Below are positions 3,560-13,056 of a DNA stretch of 25,845 nucleotides, piece after piece (positions within the stretch are counted from its first letter, which is position 1; every line of letters starts with the position of its first letter). The stretch lies in NCBI GenBank assembly GCA_016792845.1, contig JAEUKH010000043.1, forward strand, positions 1-25,845, given 5' to 3'. This DNA is from Myxococcales bacterium. Its GTDB lineage: Bacteria; Myxococcota_A; Polyangia; Polyangiales; Ga0077539. The notes beneath the pieces are model-generated. The model was not told the DNA's origin and did not search any database. It saw only the letters and a program-made list of their open reading frames with translations. Made by a program: the position numbers and the translations under genes.

Positions 3560-4730
3560 GCCGCCCGGGGTGACGGCCGACCGAGAGGGCGCCCCGGAGG
3601 CCTCGCAGGGGTCTGGCCTGGGGTCTGGCCTGGGGTCTGGCCTGGGGTCTGGCCTGGGGTCTGGCCGAGGGCTGGTCACGGCGGCCGGGGTCGCGCTGGT
3701 GCTCGGCGCCGCGGCGGTGTTCGGCGCGCTGTGGGTGCCGATGGTGTTCGCCCTGTGGACGGCCGCTCTCCTCACCCCCCTGCACCGCTGGCTCGAAGCG
3801 CGCCTCGGCGGTCGCACCGCGGCGGCCACGGTGCTCGAGCTCGTGGCGGTGATGTCGCTGCTCGTGCCCTTGGTCTTCCTGGTGCTCTTGGTGGGCACCG
3901 AGGCTGCGGGCTTCGCGCGTCGCATCGTGGCCTCGCCCGCGGCGCAGGTCGCCCTCGAAGCGATGGTCTCGGCCGACCCGACGCAGAGCCCGCCGGGGCC
4001 CGTGTCGGGCGCCATCGCGATGCTCCCGGCCGCGCTTCAGCGCTTGGGCGCGCCGGTGATCGAGCGGGTCGCGGCGCTCCTCTCAGAGCACGGCGCGACG
4101 GCGTGGAGTTGGGCCGCGAGCGCAGCGGGGGCAGGGGCGAGCCTCACCCTCGATTTCGTGATCTTCGCGGTGACGCTCTTCGCGGTGCGCACCGAGGGCG
4201 ACGCGGCGTGGGCTTGGGCGCGCGCGCACGTGCCGCTCGGGCCCGAGACCCTCGACCGGCTGGCCCGAGCCTTCACCGAGACGGGCCGCGGGATCTTCAT
4301 CGGCGCGGGCCTCACGAGCCTCGCCCAGAGCCTCTTGTCGATGCTCTTTTACGCCGCCCTCGGCGTGCCGCGGGTGGTCGTCTTGGGGCTCCTCACCTTT
4401 GTCGCGGCCTTTGTGCCTGCGGTGGGCACCGCCGTCGTGTGGGGCCCCGTCGCCCTCGGCCTCGCCCTCACCGGACACCCCGGCAAGGCCCTCGCCCTCG
4501 CCCTCCTCGGCGCCTTCGGCGTAGGCTCCATCGACAACCTCACCCGCCCGCTCTTCCAGCGCTGGGGCGGAAACCTCAAGCTCCCCGCCTCGGTGCTCCT
4601 CTTCGCGGCCTTCGGCGGCCTGAGCCTCTTCGGCGCCAAAGGCCTCTTGCTCGGCCCACTTCTCGTGCGCATGGCCCGCGAGGTGATCGAAATCGCGCGC
4701 CCCGCGCCGCCCTCAACGCCGCCAGGTTGA
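3540..4730 (+). CDS. AI-2E family transporter (PerM/YdiK-like, UPF0118) with a low-complexity N-terminal extension
   Basis: Multi-TM protein. The C-terminal half (AFVPAVGTAVVWGPVALGLALTG...GVGSIDNLTRPLFQ) is typical of AI-2E/UPF0118 transporters. The ATG at 3540 overlaps the proC 3' end by 20 nt, so the true start may be further downstream (for example an in-frame GTG). The N-terminus contains a (GSGL)n repeat. Confidence 0.7.
   Translation: MPTPPSEPPGVTADREGAPEASQGSGLGSGLGSGLGSGLGSGRGLVTAAGVALVLGAAAVFGALWVPMVFALWTAALLTPLHRWLEARLGGRTAAATVLELVAVMSLLVPLVFLVLLVGTEAAGFARRIVASPAAQVALEAMVSADPTQSPPGPVSGAIAMLPAALQRLGAPVIERVAALLSEHGATAWSWAASAAGAGASLTLDFVIFAVTLFAVRTEGDAAWAWARAHVPLGPETLDRLARAFTETGRGIFIGAGLTSLAQSLLSMLFYAALGVPRVVVLGLLTFVAAFVPAVGTAVVWGPVALGLALTGHPGKALALALLGAFGVGSIDNLTRPLFQRWGGNLKLPASVLLFAAFGGLSLFGAKGLLLGPLLVRMAREVIEIARPAPPSTPPG
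3608..3667 (+). repeat. 12-bp perfect tandem repeat (GGGTCTGGCCTG) x5 inside the transporter N-terminus
   Basis: Read directly: four perfect units plus one degenerate unit. It is in frame (a multiple of 3) and encodes GSGLGSGLGSGLGSGLGSGRG. Confidence 0.9.
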
Positions 4731-4982
4731 ACACCGTTCAACTCCGCGCAAGCCCTCTCCTCTCGCCCCCGCTGCGCCTTTGTTGAACACCGTTCAACAC
4801 GCACCGTCTCGGCCCCCGGTGCGCCCTTGTTGAACACTGTTCAACACGCACCGTCTCGGCCCCGCTGCGCCCTTGTTGAACACCGTTCAACACTCCGTCT
4901 CCGTCACCGCTTCGTCGGCGCGCAGCCCCGCGGTGAGGCCCACTCGCTCCGCGCACCCCGCGCCTGTTGAACACTGTTCAAC
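4726..4982. repeat. array of five copies of the 17-bp perfect palindrome GTTGAAC-AC(C/T)-GTTCAAC embedded in ~45-56 bp tandem units
   Basis: Palindromes at 4726-4742, 4782-4798, 4829-4845, 4875-4891 and 4966-4982. Units 2-4 share the flank gcgcccttGTTGAACACCGTTCAACacgcaccgtctcggcccc. The palindrome is only about 41% GC in a window of 70% or more. The TGA stop of the upstream transporter (4728-4730) lies inside the first copy. Confidence 0.9.
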
Positions 4983-5136: not shown

Positions 5137-5625
5137 ATGCCACCACCGCACCACGAACGGCCTCCGCCACCGAGGCATCATGCCCCGGGTGACGCCCTCG
5201 CCGACGACCCCCGTCTTGACGACGCGCTTCGGAGCCTCGTCGACGACCCGGGCGCCCGTCGCTTCGTGCTTCGTTGCCTCGTGGGAGAGGGCCCGCAGCA
5301 TCACCGCGCGTCGAATCAGGTGTTGGTGCTCCTCTTGGCCGAGCTCGTGGCGCGTCTCGACGGGGCGCGGCCGCTCGACGCTTCGGGCCCTCAGCTCGCG
5401 GTGGCGATGCGCCTGCCGCCGCACCTTCGGGGCGACCGCGACGACCAGCGCTACCCGATCTCGGTGCCCCGCGCGGTGCTCGAACGCCTCTCAGATGACC
5501 CCGCCGCCGTCGACGCGATGGCCAGGGCGGTGGTCGACGGGCCGCCCCAGCACGCCGTCGCCAACGTGGTGATGTTGGGGCTCCTCGCGCAGTGCCTCGC
5601 GGCGCTTGAGGGCCGCCCCGCGTGA
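5137..5625 (+). CDS. hypothetical protein (Pro/His-rich N-terminus), first gene of a coupled three-gene operon
   Basis: ATG 5137 is preceded by AAAGGA 9 nt upstream. There is strong GC3 bias through the second half. Its stop TGA overlaps the GTG start of the next gene (GTGA). No family recognised. Confidence 0.5.
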   Translation: MPPPHHERPPPPRHHAPGDALADDPRLDDALRSLVDDPGARRFVLRCLVGEGPQHHRASNQVLVLLLAELVARLDGARPLDASGPQLAVAMRLPPHLRGDRDDQRYPISVPRAVLERLSDDPAAVDAMARAVVDGPPQHAVANVVMLGLLAQCLAALEGRPA

Positions 5626-6251
5626 GCGACCCGTCGCTGGCCATGGCCTTCTCGGCGGCGGCCGGAGAGCTCGGCATGAGCGCGGCGTCCTGGCTCTTTC
5701 TGCGCACCCTCGCGGCGGTCGAGGCGGGGGCCGAGGAGGCCGCGATCGAGAGCCTGGGGGCGCAGTTTCCGGTGATGGCGGCGGTGGGCGCGGCGTGGCG
5801 CGAGGGGCACCGCGGGCCGCGGTGTGACCTTGAGGGTGTGCGGGCGCGGCTCGACGGCGTCACCCGGGCCGTGGTGCTCGGGGTCGAGAGCGCACACCTC
5901 GACGCGCTCGTCGCGGCCTCGCCGGGGCTCGAACTCGGGCTCGTCACGGAGTCTCCGCTTGAGGCCGATTTCGAGCGCATCTTGGCCAACTTCGGGGGCC
6001 GCGTGGCCGCCGTCTCGCTCGCCGAATTGCAGCGCTGGAGCGGCGCGACGAGCGCCCTGGTCACCTTCCTCTACGGGGTCGACTCGCACGCCACGCAGGT
6101 CAGCCCCATCTGGCTCCGGGCCGTCGGCGACGACACCCGCACCCAGTTTCGCACCCTCCTCGGGTGGAACGTCTTGCCCGCCCCGATGCCCGTCTACCCC
6201 CGCTGGCTCGTCGAGGTCGCCCTCGACGCCTTCACCGACGTGGTGCCCTGA
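5622..6251 (+). CDS. hypothetical protein, second gene of the coupled operon
   Basis: GTG start at 5622 overlaps the preceding stop. Very strong third-position GC bias. Its stop TGA 6249-6251 overlaps the ATG of the permease (TGATG). No family recognised. Confidence 0.55.
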   Translation: MSDPSLAMAFSAAAGELGMSAASWLFLRTLAAVEAGAEEAAIESLGAQFPVMAAVGAAWREGHRGPRCDLEGVRARLDGVTRAVVLGVESAHLDALVAASPGLELGLVTESPLEADFERILANFGGRVAAVSLAELQRWSGATSALVTFLYGVDSHATQVSPIWLRAVGDDTRTQFRTLLGWNVLPAPMPVYPRWLVEVALDAFTDVVP

Positions 6252-7576
6252 TGAGCCTCGCCTTCGCGGGCATCCTCCTCGCGGCGCTGATCGCCCAGGC
6301 CCTCTGGCCCGGCGCCCGCCTCAGGGTGGTCGTCTCGGGCGCGGCGCTGAGCTGCCTTCTGGCCTCGCTTCGCGGCGTGAGCACCACGGCCCGGCTCTTC
6401 GCGGCGGTCCCGTGGGACGTCTTGACGATCCTCGTGGGCCTCGGGGTGGTCACCGAGGTGCTCGTCGCCTCGCGGCTCTTCTCGCTCATGGCCGTTCGGG
6501 TGACCCGGGCCACCGGGGCCCGACCGTGGCGCTTCGCGCTCACCTTCGCGTTGGTGATGTACGTCGTGAGCGGCCTGGTCAACAACCTCACGGCGCTCCT
6601 CCTGGTCTTGCCCGTGATGCTGGTGGTGTTTCGCGTCCTCGGGGTCACGCAGCGCTTCTTGTCGCTCACATTGGGGCTCTTGCTGGTGGCTTGTAACCTC
6701 GGCGGCGCCGCCACGCCCATCGGAGACTTCCCCGCGATTTTGCTCCTCGGTCGTGGCGCGATGCGCTTCGGGGTCTACCTCACCGCGGCGGCCCCTCGCA
6801 CCGCGCTGGCCCTCGCCCTCGTGGTGGTCGCCCTCTCGTGGCGCCGTCAAGCGAGCCCCCGCGACGGCACCGAGGCGCTCAGGGCCGCGCTCACGGTGAA
6901 CACCCTCGAAGCCCTCCACCGCGGCATCCGCATCGACCGCAGGTACCTCTTGCCGGGCGCGGCGGCCCTCGCGGCGATGCTCCTCGGGTGGGTCTTGATC
7001 CCCGCCTCGACGGGCATCGGCCCCGAGCTCATCTGCTGGCTCGGCGCCGCCCTGAGCCTCCTCGGCGCCGGAAAGGTCGGCGAGACCATCGCCCGCCGCC
7101 GCGTCGACGTCGAGGCCGTGCTCTTCCTCCTCTCGCTCTTCGTGATGGTGGGCGCGGCCCGCGAGAGCCACCTCTTCACCGACATCGCCCGCTGGCTCAC
7201 GGCGCTGCCCCTCTCGCCCGCCGCGCAGGTGGTGGTCTTCCTCGTCGCCGCGGCGCTGCTCACGGGCGTCTTCAGCGCGGGGCCGAGCATGGCGGCGCTC
7301 CTCGACGTCGCCGACGCCCTCGCCCGGCAGCACCCCCGCGAGGCCCGCGACGCCCTCTACGTGGGCCTCGCGATGAGCGTCTGCGCGGGCAGCTCGCTCT
7401 TCCTCACCGCCGCCACCGCAGGGCCCCTCACCCAGAGCCTCATCGAACGCGCGGGCCTCCGTGGCCCCGACGGAGAGCCCCTCCGCTTCGGCTTCCGAGA
7501 GTACCTCCCGGTCGGCCTCGTGGCCTTCGCGCTCATCCTCTCGGTGGGCATCGCGAGCACCCTCGCCGCCCTCTGA
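6251..7576 (+). CDS. ArsB/NhaD-superfamily permease (anion/arsenite-type ion transporter family)
   Basis: Multi-TM protein. The blocks GLVNNLTALLLVLPVMLVVF and VDVEAVLFLLSLFVMVGAARESHLFTDIARWL align by eye with E. coli ArsB (FANDGAALILTPIVIAML and [32 protein letters not shown]). The ATG at 6251 is chosen over the upstream TTG at 6164 because of the start/stop coupling. Confidence 0.7.
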   Translation: MSLAFAGILLAALIAQALWPGARLRVVVSGAALSCLLASLRGVSTTARLFAAVPWDVLTILVGLGVVTEVLVASRLFSLMAVRVTRATGARPWRFALTFALVMYVVSGLVNNLTALLLVLPVMLVVFRVLGVTQRFLSLTLGLLLVACNLGGAATPIGDFPAILLLGRGAMRFGVYLTAAAPRTALALALVVVALSWRRQASPRDGTEALRAALTVNTLEALHRGIRIDRRYLLPGAAALAAMLLGWVLIPASTGIGPELICWLGAALSLLGAGKVGETIARRRVDVEAVLFLLSLFVMVGAARESHLFTDIARWLTALPLSPAAQVVVFLVAAALLTGVFSAGPSMAALLDVADALARQHPREARDALYVGLAMSVCAGSSLFLTAATAGPLTQSLIERAGLRGPDGEPLRFGFREYLPVGLVAFALILSVGIASTLAAL

Positions 7577-7597
7577 CGGCCCCTCGCCGACACCGCC

Positions 7598-7712
7598 CAC
7601 GCGCGGCGTGTTGAACACCGTTCAACTTCAGCGACCCGCCCACGCGCGGCGTGTTGAACACCGTTCAACTTCAGCGACCCACCCAGGCGCGGCGTGTTGA
7701 ACACCGTTCAAC
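7598..7712. repeat. three tandem 43-bp units, each containing the same 17-bp palindrome GTTGAACACCGTTCAAC
   Basis: Palindromes at 7610-7626, 7653-7669 and 7696-7712, with a period of exactly 43 bp. The unit is cacgcgcggcgtGTTGAACACCGTTCAACttcagcgacccgcc. The array begins 22 bp after the permease stop. The stop (TGA on the minus strand, 7708-7710) of the convergent gene lies inside the last copy. Confidence 0.9.
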
Positions 7713-8433
7713 TTGCGACGCCGAGGTCGATGACCCAGGCCTCGGGAGCCCACCGGCGCCAGGTCTCGGCCGGGAGGTTCACCCACGACGACGCGCGGTC
7801 GATCACCAGGCCGTCGGCGCTGGCCACGCAGCCGGCTCCGACGAGCGCCGTGTCGGCGTCGCGCACCATCTCGACCCGGGCCGCACACCCCTGCGCGCGG
7901 GCCCCCTCGCAGGCCGCCTCGCAGAGCGCCCGCACGCGGCCCGAGTTGCTCACCGGCGCGTCGATCCACAGGGTGATCGCGGCCGCCCGGGCTTCGAGCA
8001 GGCAGCGCACCAGCCAGTCGATCGCCGCGGCCGAGTCGTCGACGGTGCGGTAGCTCCCGCGGAGCCCGCAAAGGTCGCGGAGCGCGCCGTCGCGGCCCAC
8101 AAAGCTCGGAGCCCCGCCGCGCAACACCTCAAGGCTCACGAGCGTGTTGAAGAGGTCGACGTCGACCCGCTCACCGCCGAGCGACGCGAGCCCGCGACGG
8201 GTCTTCGCCCGCGAGACGCAGCCCGCGTCGTCGACGCTCATGCGCGACACCGCGAGGCGGGCCCGGGCGTGGAGCTGGTGATGGTCGCCCGCCGCCCGCA
8301 CCGCCGCCTCGCGGGGGTACCCCCGTGACAAGAGCCACGACACCTCTTCGACCGCCGCGCGCAACGCGGGCCGCGAGGCGGTCGAGAAGTGCGAGGCGTC
8401 GTCGGCGTCGGCGCCGCGTCGTCGGTCAGACAT
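7708..8433 (-). CDS. hypothetical protein (weak resemblance to DUF434/DUF5616-type proteins, not verified)
   Basis: Start ATG 8433 (MSDRRRGADADD...). The longer ORF back to 8532 adds an unlikely Arg/Pro-rich leader. Good GC3 bias. Contains SWLLSRGYPREAAV and ITLWIDAPVSNSGRVRAL blocks. Confidence 0.5.
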   Translation of the reverse strand: MSDRRRGADADDASHFSTASRPALRAAVEEVSWLLSRGYPREAAVRAAGDHHQLHARARLAVSRMSVDDAGCVSRAKTRRGLASLGGERVDVDLFNTLVSLEVLRGGAPSFVGRDGALRDLCGLRGSYRTVDDSAAAIDWLVRCLLEARAAAITLWIDAPVSNSGRVRALCEAACEGARAQGCAARVEMVRDADTALVGAGCVASADGLVIDRASSWVNLPAETWRRWAPEAWVIDLGVAS

Positions 8434-12153: not shown

Positions 12154-13056
12154 ATGGCGCTCACCCCCGCAGAGAAGATGGCCCGGTACAGCCTCGCGAC
12201 GGGCGTGGCGGTGCTGGGGCTCAAGACCCTCGCCTGGCGGCTCACGGGCTCGGTGGCCCTGCTCTCAGACGCCCTCGAATCGATCGTCAACGTGGTGGCC
12301 TCGCTCGCGATGGCCGTGGCGGTCTCGATCTCGCAGGCGCCGCCCGACGACGACCACCCCTTCGGGCACGGCAAGGCCGAGTACCTCTCGGCGGTGCTCG
12401 AGGGCGTGCTCATCGTGGTGGCGGCGGGCATGAGCGTGTTCGCCGCGGCGGGGCGAATTCTGCACCCGCGGCCCCTTGAGGCGGTCACCGTCGGCGCGCT
12501 CGTCTCGGCGGCGGCGACGGGGCTCAACGGGCTCCTCGCGTGGCGGCTGATGGCAGTCGGGCGCCGCGTTCAGTCGCCCGCGTTGATGGCCGACGGCAAG
12601 CACATCGTGAGCGACGTGATCACCACCGCGGGCGTGCTCTTGGGCGTGCTGGTCGCGCGCTTGACCGGGCGCTGGGTGCTCGACCCGCTCCTCGCCATCG
12701 CAGTCGCGCTGAACATCGTCTCGATGGGCTGGCACCTCATCCGCGAATCGATCGGCGGCCTGATGGACGAGGTGCTCGACCCCGCCGTGGTCACCGCCCT
12801 CCGCGCCAAGGCCGAGGCGAGCGCGCGGGCCGCGGGCGCCACGGGCATCGAGGCCCTGCGCTGGCGACGCGCGGGGCCCTACACCTGGCTCGCCGCGGTG
12901 GTGCGGGTGCCGGGCGCGATGCGCGTCGACGCGGCCCACGCCATCTGCGACCAGATCGAAGCCGCCCTCGCGGCCGATGAGCCGAAGTTGCAGGTGATGC
13001 TCCACGTCGAGCCCGACCCCGTAGCGCCCCCTCAGGGCGGCGCAGGCGCGGCGTAG
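12154..13056 (+). CDS. cation diffusion facilitator (CDF) family divalent-metal efflux transporter
   Basis: ALLSDALESIVNVV (TM2 signature), HPFGHGKAEY and the C-terminal cytoplasmic domain are typical of CzcD/FieF-type CDF proteins. Confidence 0.85.
   Translation: MALTPAEKMARYSLATGVAVLGLKTLAWRLTGSVALLSDALESIVNVVASLAMAVAVSISQAPPDDDHPFGHGKAEYLSAVLEGVLIVVAAGMSVFAAAGRILHPRPLEAVTVGALVSAAATGLNGLLAWRLMAVGRRVQSPALMADGKHIVSDVITTAGVLLGVLVARLTGRWVLDPLLAIAVALNIVSMGWHLIRESIGGLMDEVLDPAVVTALRAKAEASARAAGATGIEALRWRRAGPYTWLAAVVRVPGAMRVDAAHAICDQIEAALAADEPKLQVMLHVEPDPVAPPQGGAGAA

Follow-up and report, generated by a model that had tools for sequence, protein, structure and literature searches.

Two unnamed protein families are encoded in a conserved, overlapping operon with a permease of the ArsB/NhaD superfamily

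Introduction

Several bacterial transporters depend on small soluble proteins that are encoded beside them. In the KefF–KefC and KefG–KefB pairs, a small cytoplasmic protein with an enzyme fold, whose gene lies directly 5' of the transporter gene and overlaps it, is required for transporter activity; KefF itself is a quinone oxidoreductase of the flavodoxin-like type, and its partner KefC a CPA2 antiporter that has a KTN domain of its own. More generally, ancillary proteins with enzyme folds or nucleotide-binding properties serve KefC (KefF), TrkH (TrkA), SbtA (SbtB) and ArsB (ArsA/ArsD), and in the ArsD/ArsA–ArsB and SbtB–SbtA systems the cytoplasmic chaperones or regulators of a secondary transporter are encoded in its operon. 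In this work we analysed an operon in which two open reading frames (ORFs) of unnamed families, called here ORF1 and ORF2, precede the gene of a permease. The operon lies in a contig of 25,845 nucleotides (JAEUKH010000043.1) from the metagenome-assembled genome (MAG) of a Myxococcales bacterium; the window refers below to this whole stretch, which has a G+C content of 72%.

We favour the explanation, to which we give a probability of about 0.5, that ORF1 and ORF2 are ancillary cytoplasmic subunits dedicated to a MamN-like transporter, which they would gate or feed. An obligate partnership is preferred to a metabolic pathway because the three genes are syntenic in a 1:1:1 ratio, because their overlaps are conserved and no other neighbour is, and because one of the soluble partners has a predicted ligand-binding fold while the other has the look of a metal-binding protein.

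Conservation and translational coupling of the operon

Besides the window, 35 loci (L001–L035) were gathered in three ways: by a genome scan (22 loci), by look-ups of individual proteins, and by look-ups of distant ORF2 relatives, which lie on metagenomic contigs of 57% G+C. ORF1, ORF2 and a CitMHS permease are present on one strand in every locus with a contig long enough, as they are in the window, and the distant members on the 57%-G+C contigs keep this synteny even though the match of their ORF2 to the family profile reaches only E 1e-31 to 1e-23. The hosts are many Myxococcota, including the cultured Myxococcus vastator AM301 and Corallococcus macrosporus (two complete genomes, CP002830 and CP022203), three Planctomycetota MAGs and Burkholderiales (a MAG and Hylemonella), in addition to the 57%-G+C metagenome contigs, which are unassigned. 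The relatives of ORF2 form 21 clusters at 90% identity, and when 1.84 billion representatives were searched exhaustively with a profile, the family grew to 97 clusters at 50% identity; for ORF1, a search with the single sequence found 81 relatives and one with a profile found 747. The relatives of both proteins are devoid of any Pfam domain and of any name beyond 'hypothetical protein'. When all flanking ORFs of all loci were clustered, no fourth conserved gene emerged, and the genes next to the operon in the window recurred in no other locus. The pairwise identities of the three proteins correlate with one another (r 0.80–0.89 over 27 loci), and the three are therefore inherited as one unit; this unit has apparently also been exchanged between phyla. 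Plasmids do not appear among the carriers, as neither ORF2 nor the permease gave a tblastn match in PLSDB.

The junctions between the genes are conserved as well. In 26 of 27 loci, ORF1 and ORF2 overlap by NTGA; the exception, L024, still has ATGA but appears to be frameshifted. The first base of this overlap is A in 12 loci, G in eight, T in six and C in none. It occupies a third codon position, and third positions are 84–95% G+C in the host genomes; that C never occurs there argues strongly for selection of the overlapping triplet as a start codon. At the junction of ORF2 with the permease gene, the distance is −4 nt in 15 of 26 loci, −1 in four, 0 or +1 in four and +6 to +18 in three, which places 23 of the 26 within −4 to +1 nt. 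Translational coupling has thus been conserved in the module and is not an accident of the window genome.

The gene boundaries in the window (Table 1) are supported independently. In the NCBI annotation of the source MAG, JNK72_22200 (162 aa) and JNK72_22205 (209 aa), both annotated as hypothetical proteins, are identical to ORF1 and ORF2 (100% identity and coverage), and gene calls on three independent Logan assemblies give proteins of 162, 209 and 441 aa whose starts agree with those in the window. A longer permease, starting at GTG 6164, was considered and rejected: the homologues are 439–444 aa long and align from residues 2–20 of the 441-aa form, and the 29 extra codons (6164–6250) coincide with the part of ORF2 that encodes its conserved YPRW...FT C-terminus. 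The initial annotation of this DNA, made from the sequence alone, had described an operon of three genes with two start–stop overlaps. Both overlaps are present as described, the first of them recurs across the related loci, both upstream genes proved to be conserved and to accompany the permease gene wherever the contig is long enough, and no better-supported start was found for the permease, the 441-aa form being backed by the lengths and alignments of its homologues.

One protein of the representative set, P0181, a 151-aa fragment from a short metagenomic contig, is an in-frame fusion of the C-terminus of ORF1 to the N-terminus of ORF2. Most other 'fusions' in this set are frameshifted or garbled calls, and P0181 alone looks in-frame; P0141, P0167, P0174 and P0179 were rejected as fusions since they look like frameshifted calls.

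Table 1. Positions of the operon genes, their overlaps and the flanking repeats in the window
Feature	Positions	Strand	Description
ORF1	5137–5625	+	162 aa; ATG 5137, TGA 5623–5625; protein begins MPPPHHERPPPPRHH
ORF2	5622–6251	+	209 aa; GTG 5622–5624, TGA 6249–6251
Permease	6251–7576	+	441 aa; ATG 6251–6253
GTGA overlap	5622–5625	+	ORF1 stop/ORF2 start, read from the sequence; translational coupling
TGATG overlap	6249–6253	+	ORF2 stop/permease start, read from the sequence
Upstream array	4727–4981		five copies of (G)TTGAACAC[CT]GTTCAA(C), spaced 46–91 bp
Downstream array	7611–7711		three copies in 43-bp tandem units (7593–7721), filling the convergent intergenic gap

The permease

The permease is a basic protein (isoelectric point, pI, 11) with about 11–12 hydrophobic segments. 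It matches the Pfam family CitMHS PF03600 (E 2.3e-29, 103 bits for a cut-off of 31.9; residues 31–362 align with positions 14–322 of the 336 of the model) and, more weakly, Na_sulph_symp, and it belongs to the ion transporter (IT) superfamily, which for CitMHS is equivalent to the ArsB_NhaD_permease superfamily of CDD and agrees with the assignment in the initial annotation. The best curated NCBI model is that of MamN, NF040989 (E 6e-41, 140.6 bits; residues 19–433 align with positions 20–428 of 437), with a score below the equivalog cut-off of 500 bits; a homologue, that of L033, scores 134 bits. NhaD comes next, TIGR00775 and NF038006 giving 34.2 and 28.1 bits, in the region of the first hairpin only, for cut-offs of 577 and 80. 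The ArsB model PRK15445 gives 21.4 bits from a partial match (cut-off 457), and the other ArsB model, TIGR00935 (cut-off 415 bits), is not among the permease matches up to E 1. Among solved structures, sequence comparison found a single relative, the transport domain of yeast PHO90 (E 4e-5), and the permease homologues in the collected loci are 51–60% identical. On these profile scores, the permease is classed as a secondary transporter of the IT (ArsB/NhaD/CitMHS) superfamily that falls in a MamN-like branch and is not an orthologue of ArsB or NhaD. MamN is required for magnetite formation, its deletion leaving empty magnetosomes, and is thought to extrude protons or to handle iron, and it is biochemically uncharacterised (PMC3905215). 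Our guess is that the substrate of the permease is a cation or a proton, possibly a transition metal.

The initial annotation had proposed an accessory or regulatory module for an anion or metalloid transporter. The first half of this proposal is still the best reading of ORF1 and ORF2, whereas the second half found no support. An efflux pump for arsenite, antimonite or some other metalloid or anion, equipped with new accessory proteins, would fit the membership of the permease in the same superfamily as ArsB, and in Burkholderiales loci a second, more ArsB-like permease (68 bits) follows the module. However, the score of the permease itself on ArsB models is 21 bits for cut-offs of 415–760, both MamN and NhaD rank ahead of ArsB among the curated models, and no arsR, arsC, arsA, arsD or arsH turned up in the gene lists of related loci, in the family searches or in the clustering of flanks; the neighbour lists and family searches covered the window, L001–L004 and L031–L035, and no ars-specific search of every flank was made. 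We consider a metalloid pump highly improbable.

The ORF2 protein

Neither ORF1 nor ORF2 matches any model of Pfam, NCBIfam, PADLOC or PHROGs, the PADLOC anti-phage and PHROG models having been compared with the module proteins at E < 0.01, and the family profiles of both proteins gave nothing significant against PDB sequences. These two proteins are conserved and belong to no known Pfam family, and the remark in the initial annotation that neither resembles ArsR, ArsC, ArsD or TrkA agrees with the lack of any corresponding match in Pfam and NCBIfam. For ORF2, the 21 family members that were compared with the profile libraries all went unrecognised, the TrkA_N and TrkA_C profiles included, and the protein itself has no match among PDB sequences.

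ORF2 is acidic (pI 4.7), lacks hydrophobic segments and a signal peptide, and is predicted to be cytoplasmic. Its predicted fold, an N-terminal helical domain followed by a Rossmann-like domain, is the two-domain fold of the IF-2B family and resembles those of eIF2B, MtnA and ribose-1,5-bisphosphate isomerase, in a miniaturised version of 209 aa compared with 275–350 aa. The residues that are invariant in the ORF2 alignment include D94, R119, N123, Y151, W164, R166, D171, Q175-F176-R177 and P193-R194-W195; arginines are numerous, and no Cys is invariant. Proteins with the eIF2B/MtnA/ribose-1,5-bisphosphate-isomerase fold, whether enzymes or regulators, bind sugar phosphates and similar phosphorylated ligands. 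Given this binding, we propose that ORF2 is a small-ligand-binding subunit, which the structural prediction makes its most likely role.

The fold of ORF2 is also at the origin of the main rival explanation, in which the operon is an uptake-plus-metabolism cassette: the permease would import an organic anion or a phosphorylated compound, and ORF2, as an isomerase-type enzyme, would convert it with the help of ORF1, a metal-dependent enzyme. In support of this idea, the operon of L035 directly follows, on the same strand, genes for a putative thymidine/AMP phosphorylase and a ribose-phosphate diphosphokinase, enzymes that make or use ribose phosphates, and the module of L003 is located within a phenol/catechol meta-cleavage cluster. 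Each of these two neighbourhoods belongs to a single lineage, however, and no metabolic gene is conserved beside the module. Furthermore, isomerases of the eIF2B/MtnA family use a Cys/Asp pair, and ORF2, in addition to being shorter than these enzymes, has no invariant Cys and in no member examined matches the IF-2B profile. Finally, where genes are coupled strictly 1:1:1 with that of a transporter, one would rather expect subunits than the enzymes of a pathway. We regard such a cassette as rather unlikely and favour a role of ORF2 as an ancillary subunit of the permease.

The ORF1 protein

ORF1 is all-alpha and predicted to be cytoplasmic, without membrane segments or signal peptide. A profile–profile comparison of its two halves revealed an internal duplication (residues ~32–76 against ~116–159, probability 94%, E 1.8e-7). 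Each repeat is composed of a helix, the motif C-L-x-[ED]-G-P-(P)-x-H-x-x-A-N and a hydrophobic helix, and the sequence M-R-L-P-P-H is invariant between the repeats. The motifs are nearly universal in the family: of 156 members, 154 have C-[LIVM]-x-x-[ED]-G-P-x-H, 149 have C-[LIVM]-x-[ED]-G-P-P-x-H and 155 have LPPH. The N-terminal tail, which corresponds to residues 1–18 of the window protein, is variable in sequence but rich in His (19%) and Pro (26%) across 148 members; it usually begins with MPP and has at least three His in 95 of them. The Pro/His-rich N-terminus singled out in the initial annotation is therefore typical of the family. A fold search returned no neighbour for ORF1, which may represent a new fold with a duplicated putative metal-binding motif. 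Judging from these motifs, ORF1 most likely binds a metal ion, or possibly senses protons.

These properties lead to a more specific version of the favoured explanation, in which the operon serves metal homeostasis: ORF1 would be a metallochaperone or a sensor that passes a transition metal (Zn, Ni, Co, Fe or Cu) to or from the permease, with ORF2 as an adaptor. The His/Pro-rich tail of 148 ORF1-family members, the three conserved His-bearing motifs and the two conserved Cys point in this direction, as do the resemblance of the permease to MamN, which is implicated in iron biomineralisation, and the very name of the CitMHS family, given for metal-citrate carriers. Yet neither a Fur, Zur, ArsR, MerR or CsoR gene nor a known metal box is conserved in the vicinity, the ORF1 protein of the window has lost the second Cys, no fold similarity links ORF1 to known metallochaperones, and His-rich tails are not specific to metal handling. 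We see metal homeostasis as a plausible refinement, to be held tentatively, of the idea that ORF1 and ORF2 are subunits of the transporter.

A model for the three-component module

In the mechanism that we propose, the two cytoplasmic partners would be made in fixed proportion by termination–reinitiation at the overlapping stop and start codons; they would then assemble, on the cytoplasmic side of the transporter, into a complex that would gate the permease or hand a substrate to it. The role of the complex would be regulatory rather than enzymatic, and would involve the binding of a ligand, a metal or both. The contrast between an acidic ORF2 and a basic permease supports this proposal, as does the ORF1–ORF2 fusion fragment P0181. 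In its most detailed form, the module is heteromeric, with ORF1 as an internally duplicated Cys/His protein of a new fold that binds metal or protons and ORF2 as a miniaturised, eIF2B-fold ligand sensor, the two together controlling a MamN-like permease. This would be a previously undescribed, three-component type of transporter, and we put this detailed form forward as a possibility that is doubtful in its particulars.

Several observations weigh against our model. The IF-2B Pfam profile does not match any of the 21 ORF2-family members searched at E up to 1, and the fold of ORF2 is shared with true isomerases, so that an enzymatic role is possible. No riboswitch or conserved operator names a ligand: searches of Rfam found no riboswitch or leader in the window or in 16 loci, with only chance-level matches 5' of ORF1, and no conserved operator is visible 5' of ORF1 across 14 loci. 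The second conserved Cys, present in at least 90% of the ORF1 family, is replaced by Ala in the window (residue 131, positions 5527–5529; RAVVDGPPQH compared with the consensus DCLTDGPPQH), and a strict Cys2His2-type site consequently cannot be universal. A DinB/YfiT-like, metal-binding four-helix bundle was considered for ORF1 and rejected, as only five of 54 members gave matches, all sub-threshold (E at least 0.054), and the fold search did not confirm them.

We found no description of this three-gene module or of the two partner families in the literature. The transporter superfamily is already known, and so is the idea of an ancillary cytoplasmic subunit; what appears to be new is ORF1, a protein with a duplicated Cys/His motif and no fold neighbour, and the attachment of an eIF2B-fold protein, ORF2, to a transporter. 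Conserved operons of unassigned function are common; this one is robust and widespread, and its function is still inferred. It ties two families that have no Pfam, NCBIfam or DUF label strictly to one transporter subfamily in at least three phyla, it provides a concrete and testable hypothesis both for these families and for the MamN-like branch, a poorly understood part of the ArsB/NhaD superfamily, and it widens the range of the eIF2B/sugar-isomerase fold. If the model is correct, ORF2 would be the first case of an eIF2B/MtnA fold recruited as a transporter subunit, and the system would couple the flux of an ion or metal to a phosphorylated metabolite. It would also offer, in Corallococcus or Myxococcus, a genetic handle on the transport chemistry of the MamN branch; experiments are feasible because cultured, genetically tractable hosts exist, namely C. 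macrosporus (CP002830 and CP022203) and M. vastator AM301.

Palindrome arrays flanking the operon

The window contains eight copies of the palindrome TTGAACANNGTTCAA, five upstream and three downstream of the operon and none elsewhere in 25.8 kb, when none is expected in a shuffled window. The palindromes are the cores of tandem units of 43–56 bp that fill both intergenic gaps; outside the palindromes, the upstream units differ from the downstream ones. The AI-2E transporter gene has its stop codon (TGA 4728–4730) inside the first upstream palindrome (4727–4741), and the minus-strand DUF434/DUF5616 gene has its own (7708–7710) inside the last downstream palindrome (7697–7711), so that the arrays touch, or reach slightly into, the 3' ends of both neighbouring genes. 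The RNA fold z-score of the downstream array is −3.2. Three independent short-read assemblies of the same organism (L105–L107), two of which are 98% identical to the window, have the five upstream palindromes intact and all end at 7622, within the first downstream 43-bp unit.

The initial annotation considered the three genes to be the only cargo of a palindrome-bracketed unit, which would make the operon the load of a mobile or recombining element bounded by the arrays. All eight palindromes indeed flank exactly these three genes, the outermost ones supply the stop codons of both neighbours, and the module, which is patchily distributed across phyla, has a different neighbourhood in every lineage. 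Nevertheless, none of the four homologous loci that were searched (L001–L004) contains the palindrome, and a scan of Joint Genome Institute (JGI) metagenomes found no arrays, the single 17-mer giving 68 scattered matches (67 single and one contig with two) that are consistent with chance. In addition, no transposase, integrase, target duplication or G+C step was found, and no compositional step is present between 4700 and 7700. Tandem direct arrays of units whose flanks differ from one side to the other are like intergenic repeats of the repetitive extragenic palindromic (REP) or bacterial interspersed mosaic element (BIME) type. A mobile unit is thus very unlikely, and that claim was not upheld; we read the arrays as REP/BIME-like intergenic repeats or as a local regulatory feature of this genome, in either case outside the conserved module.

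Genomic surroundings

Upstream of the operon, the window carries proB (minus strand), proC and the gene of an AI-2E-family transporter, and downstream the convergent minus-strand DUF434/DUF5616 gene. A CDF-family cation efflux gene (Cation_efflux and ZT_dimer domains; 12154–13056) is located 4.6 kb downstream, with no evident tie to the module. The sequence AAGGA is found 8 nt 5' of the ATG of ORF1 in the window. In eight other loci (L007, L009, L010, L011, L015, L017, L026 and L031), a TAnnnT-like hexamer is present 6–9 nt before this ATG, without a Shine–Dalgarno sequence, which suggests that the ORF1 transcripts of these loci are leaderless. L024, from a Polyangiaceae genome, has an AT-rich stretch about 100–160 nt 5' of ORF1 in which CGACAGGTTAT occurs twice in direct orientation and once, in part, inverted (CTGTCGATAAC). 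This stretch, not seen in other loci, is a possible operator of that genome.

In the Burkholderiales MAG locus L003 (1–12432), genes for a phenol monooxygenase, a ferredoxin, an extradiol dioxygenase and an aldehyde dehydrogenase precede the module, and genes for a hydrolase and an FAA-hydrolase-family protein follow it. The first permease of L003 looks disrupted in comparison with the otherwise identical L004. The second, distant CitMHS permease of the Burkholderiales (422–425 aa) is encoded after the module at L033 3837–5105, L034 3345–4613 and L003 8416–9693, and its score on ArsB models is above that of the first permease. In L035, the two genes directly 5' of ORF1 (5437–7955) encode a 'putative thymidine phosphorylase' of the TIGR02645 type, to which the AMP phosphorylase model also gives 450 bits, and a ribose-phosphate diphosphokinase of the PRK07199 type; this neighbourhood is intriguing given the ribose-1,5-bisphosphate-isomerase-like fold predicted for ORF2, and concerns one locus only. 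Lastly, in C. macrosporus CP022203 (L032 9128–10446) the permease is called as two pieces of 298 and 158 aa, whereas the copy in CP002830 is intact (439 aa); the split call corresponds to a frameshift, a pseudogene or a sequencing error.

Comparison with known systems

The protein closest to the permease among curated models is MamN, with which it aligns over its full length; both are of similar size and belong to the IT/ArsB–NhaD superfamily. The permease nevertheless remains far under the MamN equivalog cut-off, and the hosts of the module are Myxococcota, Planctomycetota and Burkholderiales, in which no mam gene turned up among the neighbours listed or searched (the ten window ORFs and the flanks of L001–L004 and L031–L035, in which no mam family was found; no Mam-specific search was made). 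To our knowledge, MamN has no partners of the ORF1 or ORF2 type. ArsB is similarly a member of the same superfamily, but its partners ArsD and ArsA, as well as the PII-like SbtB, have no relation to ORF1 or ORF2 in sequence or in fold.

ORF2 shares only 6–10% identity with eIF2B alpha/beta/delta, MtnA and ribose-1,5-bisphosphate isomerase, gives no hidden Markov model (HMM) match with them and is 60–140 residues shorter, and we know of no member of the IF-2B family that partners with a transporter. The TrkA/KtrA (RCK) proteins that act with TrkH/KtrB offer an analogy as regulatory subunits, although ORF2 does not match the TrkA profile. The module differs from KefF–KefC in having two partners of unrelated folds and a transporter of the IT superfamily. 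With its small alpha/beta partner of enzyme fold, encoded by a gene that overlaps the transporter gene, KefF–KefC is nonetheless the closest working analogy to the module described here.

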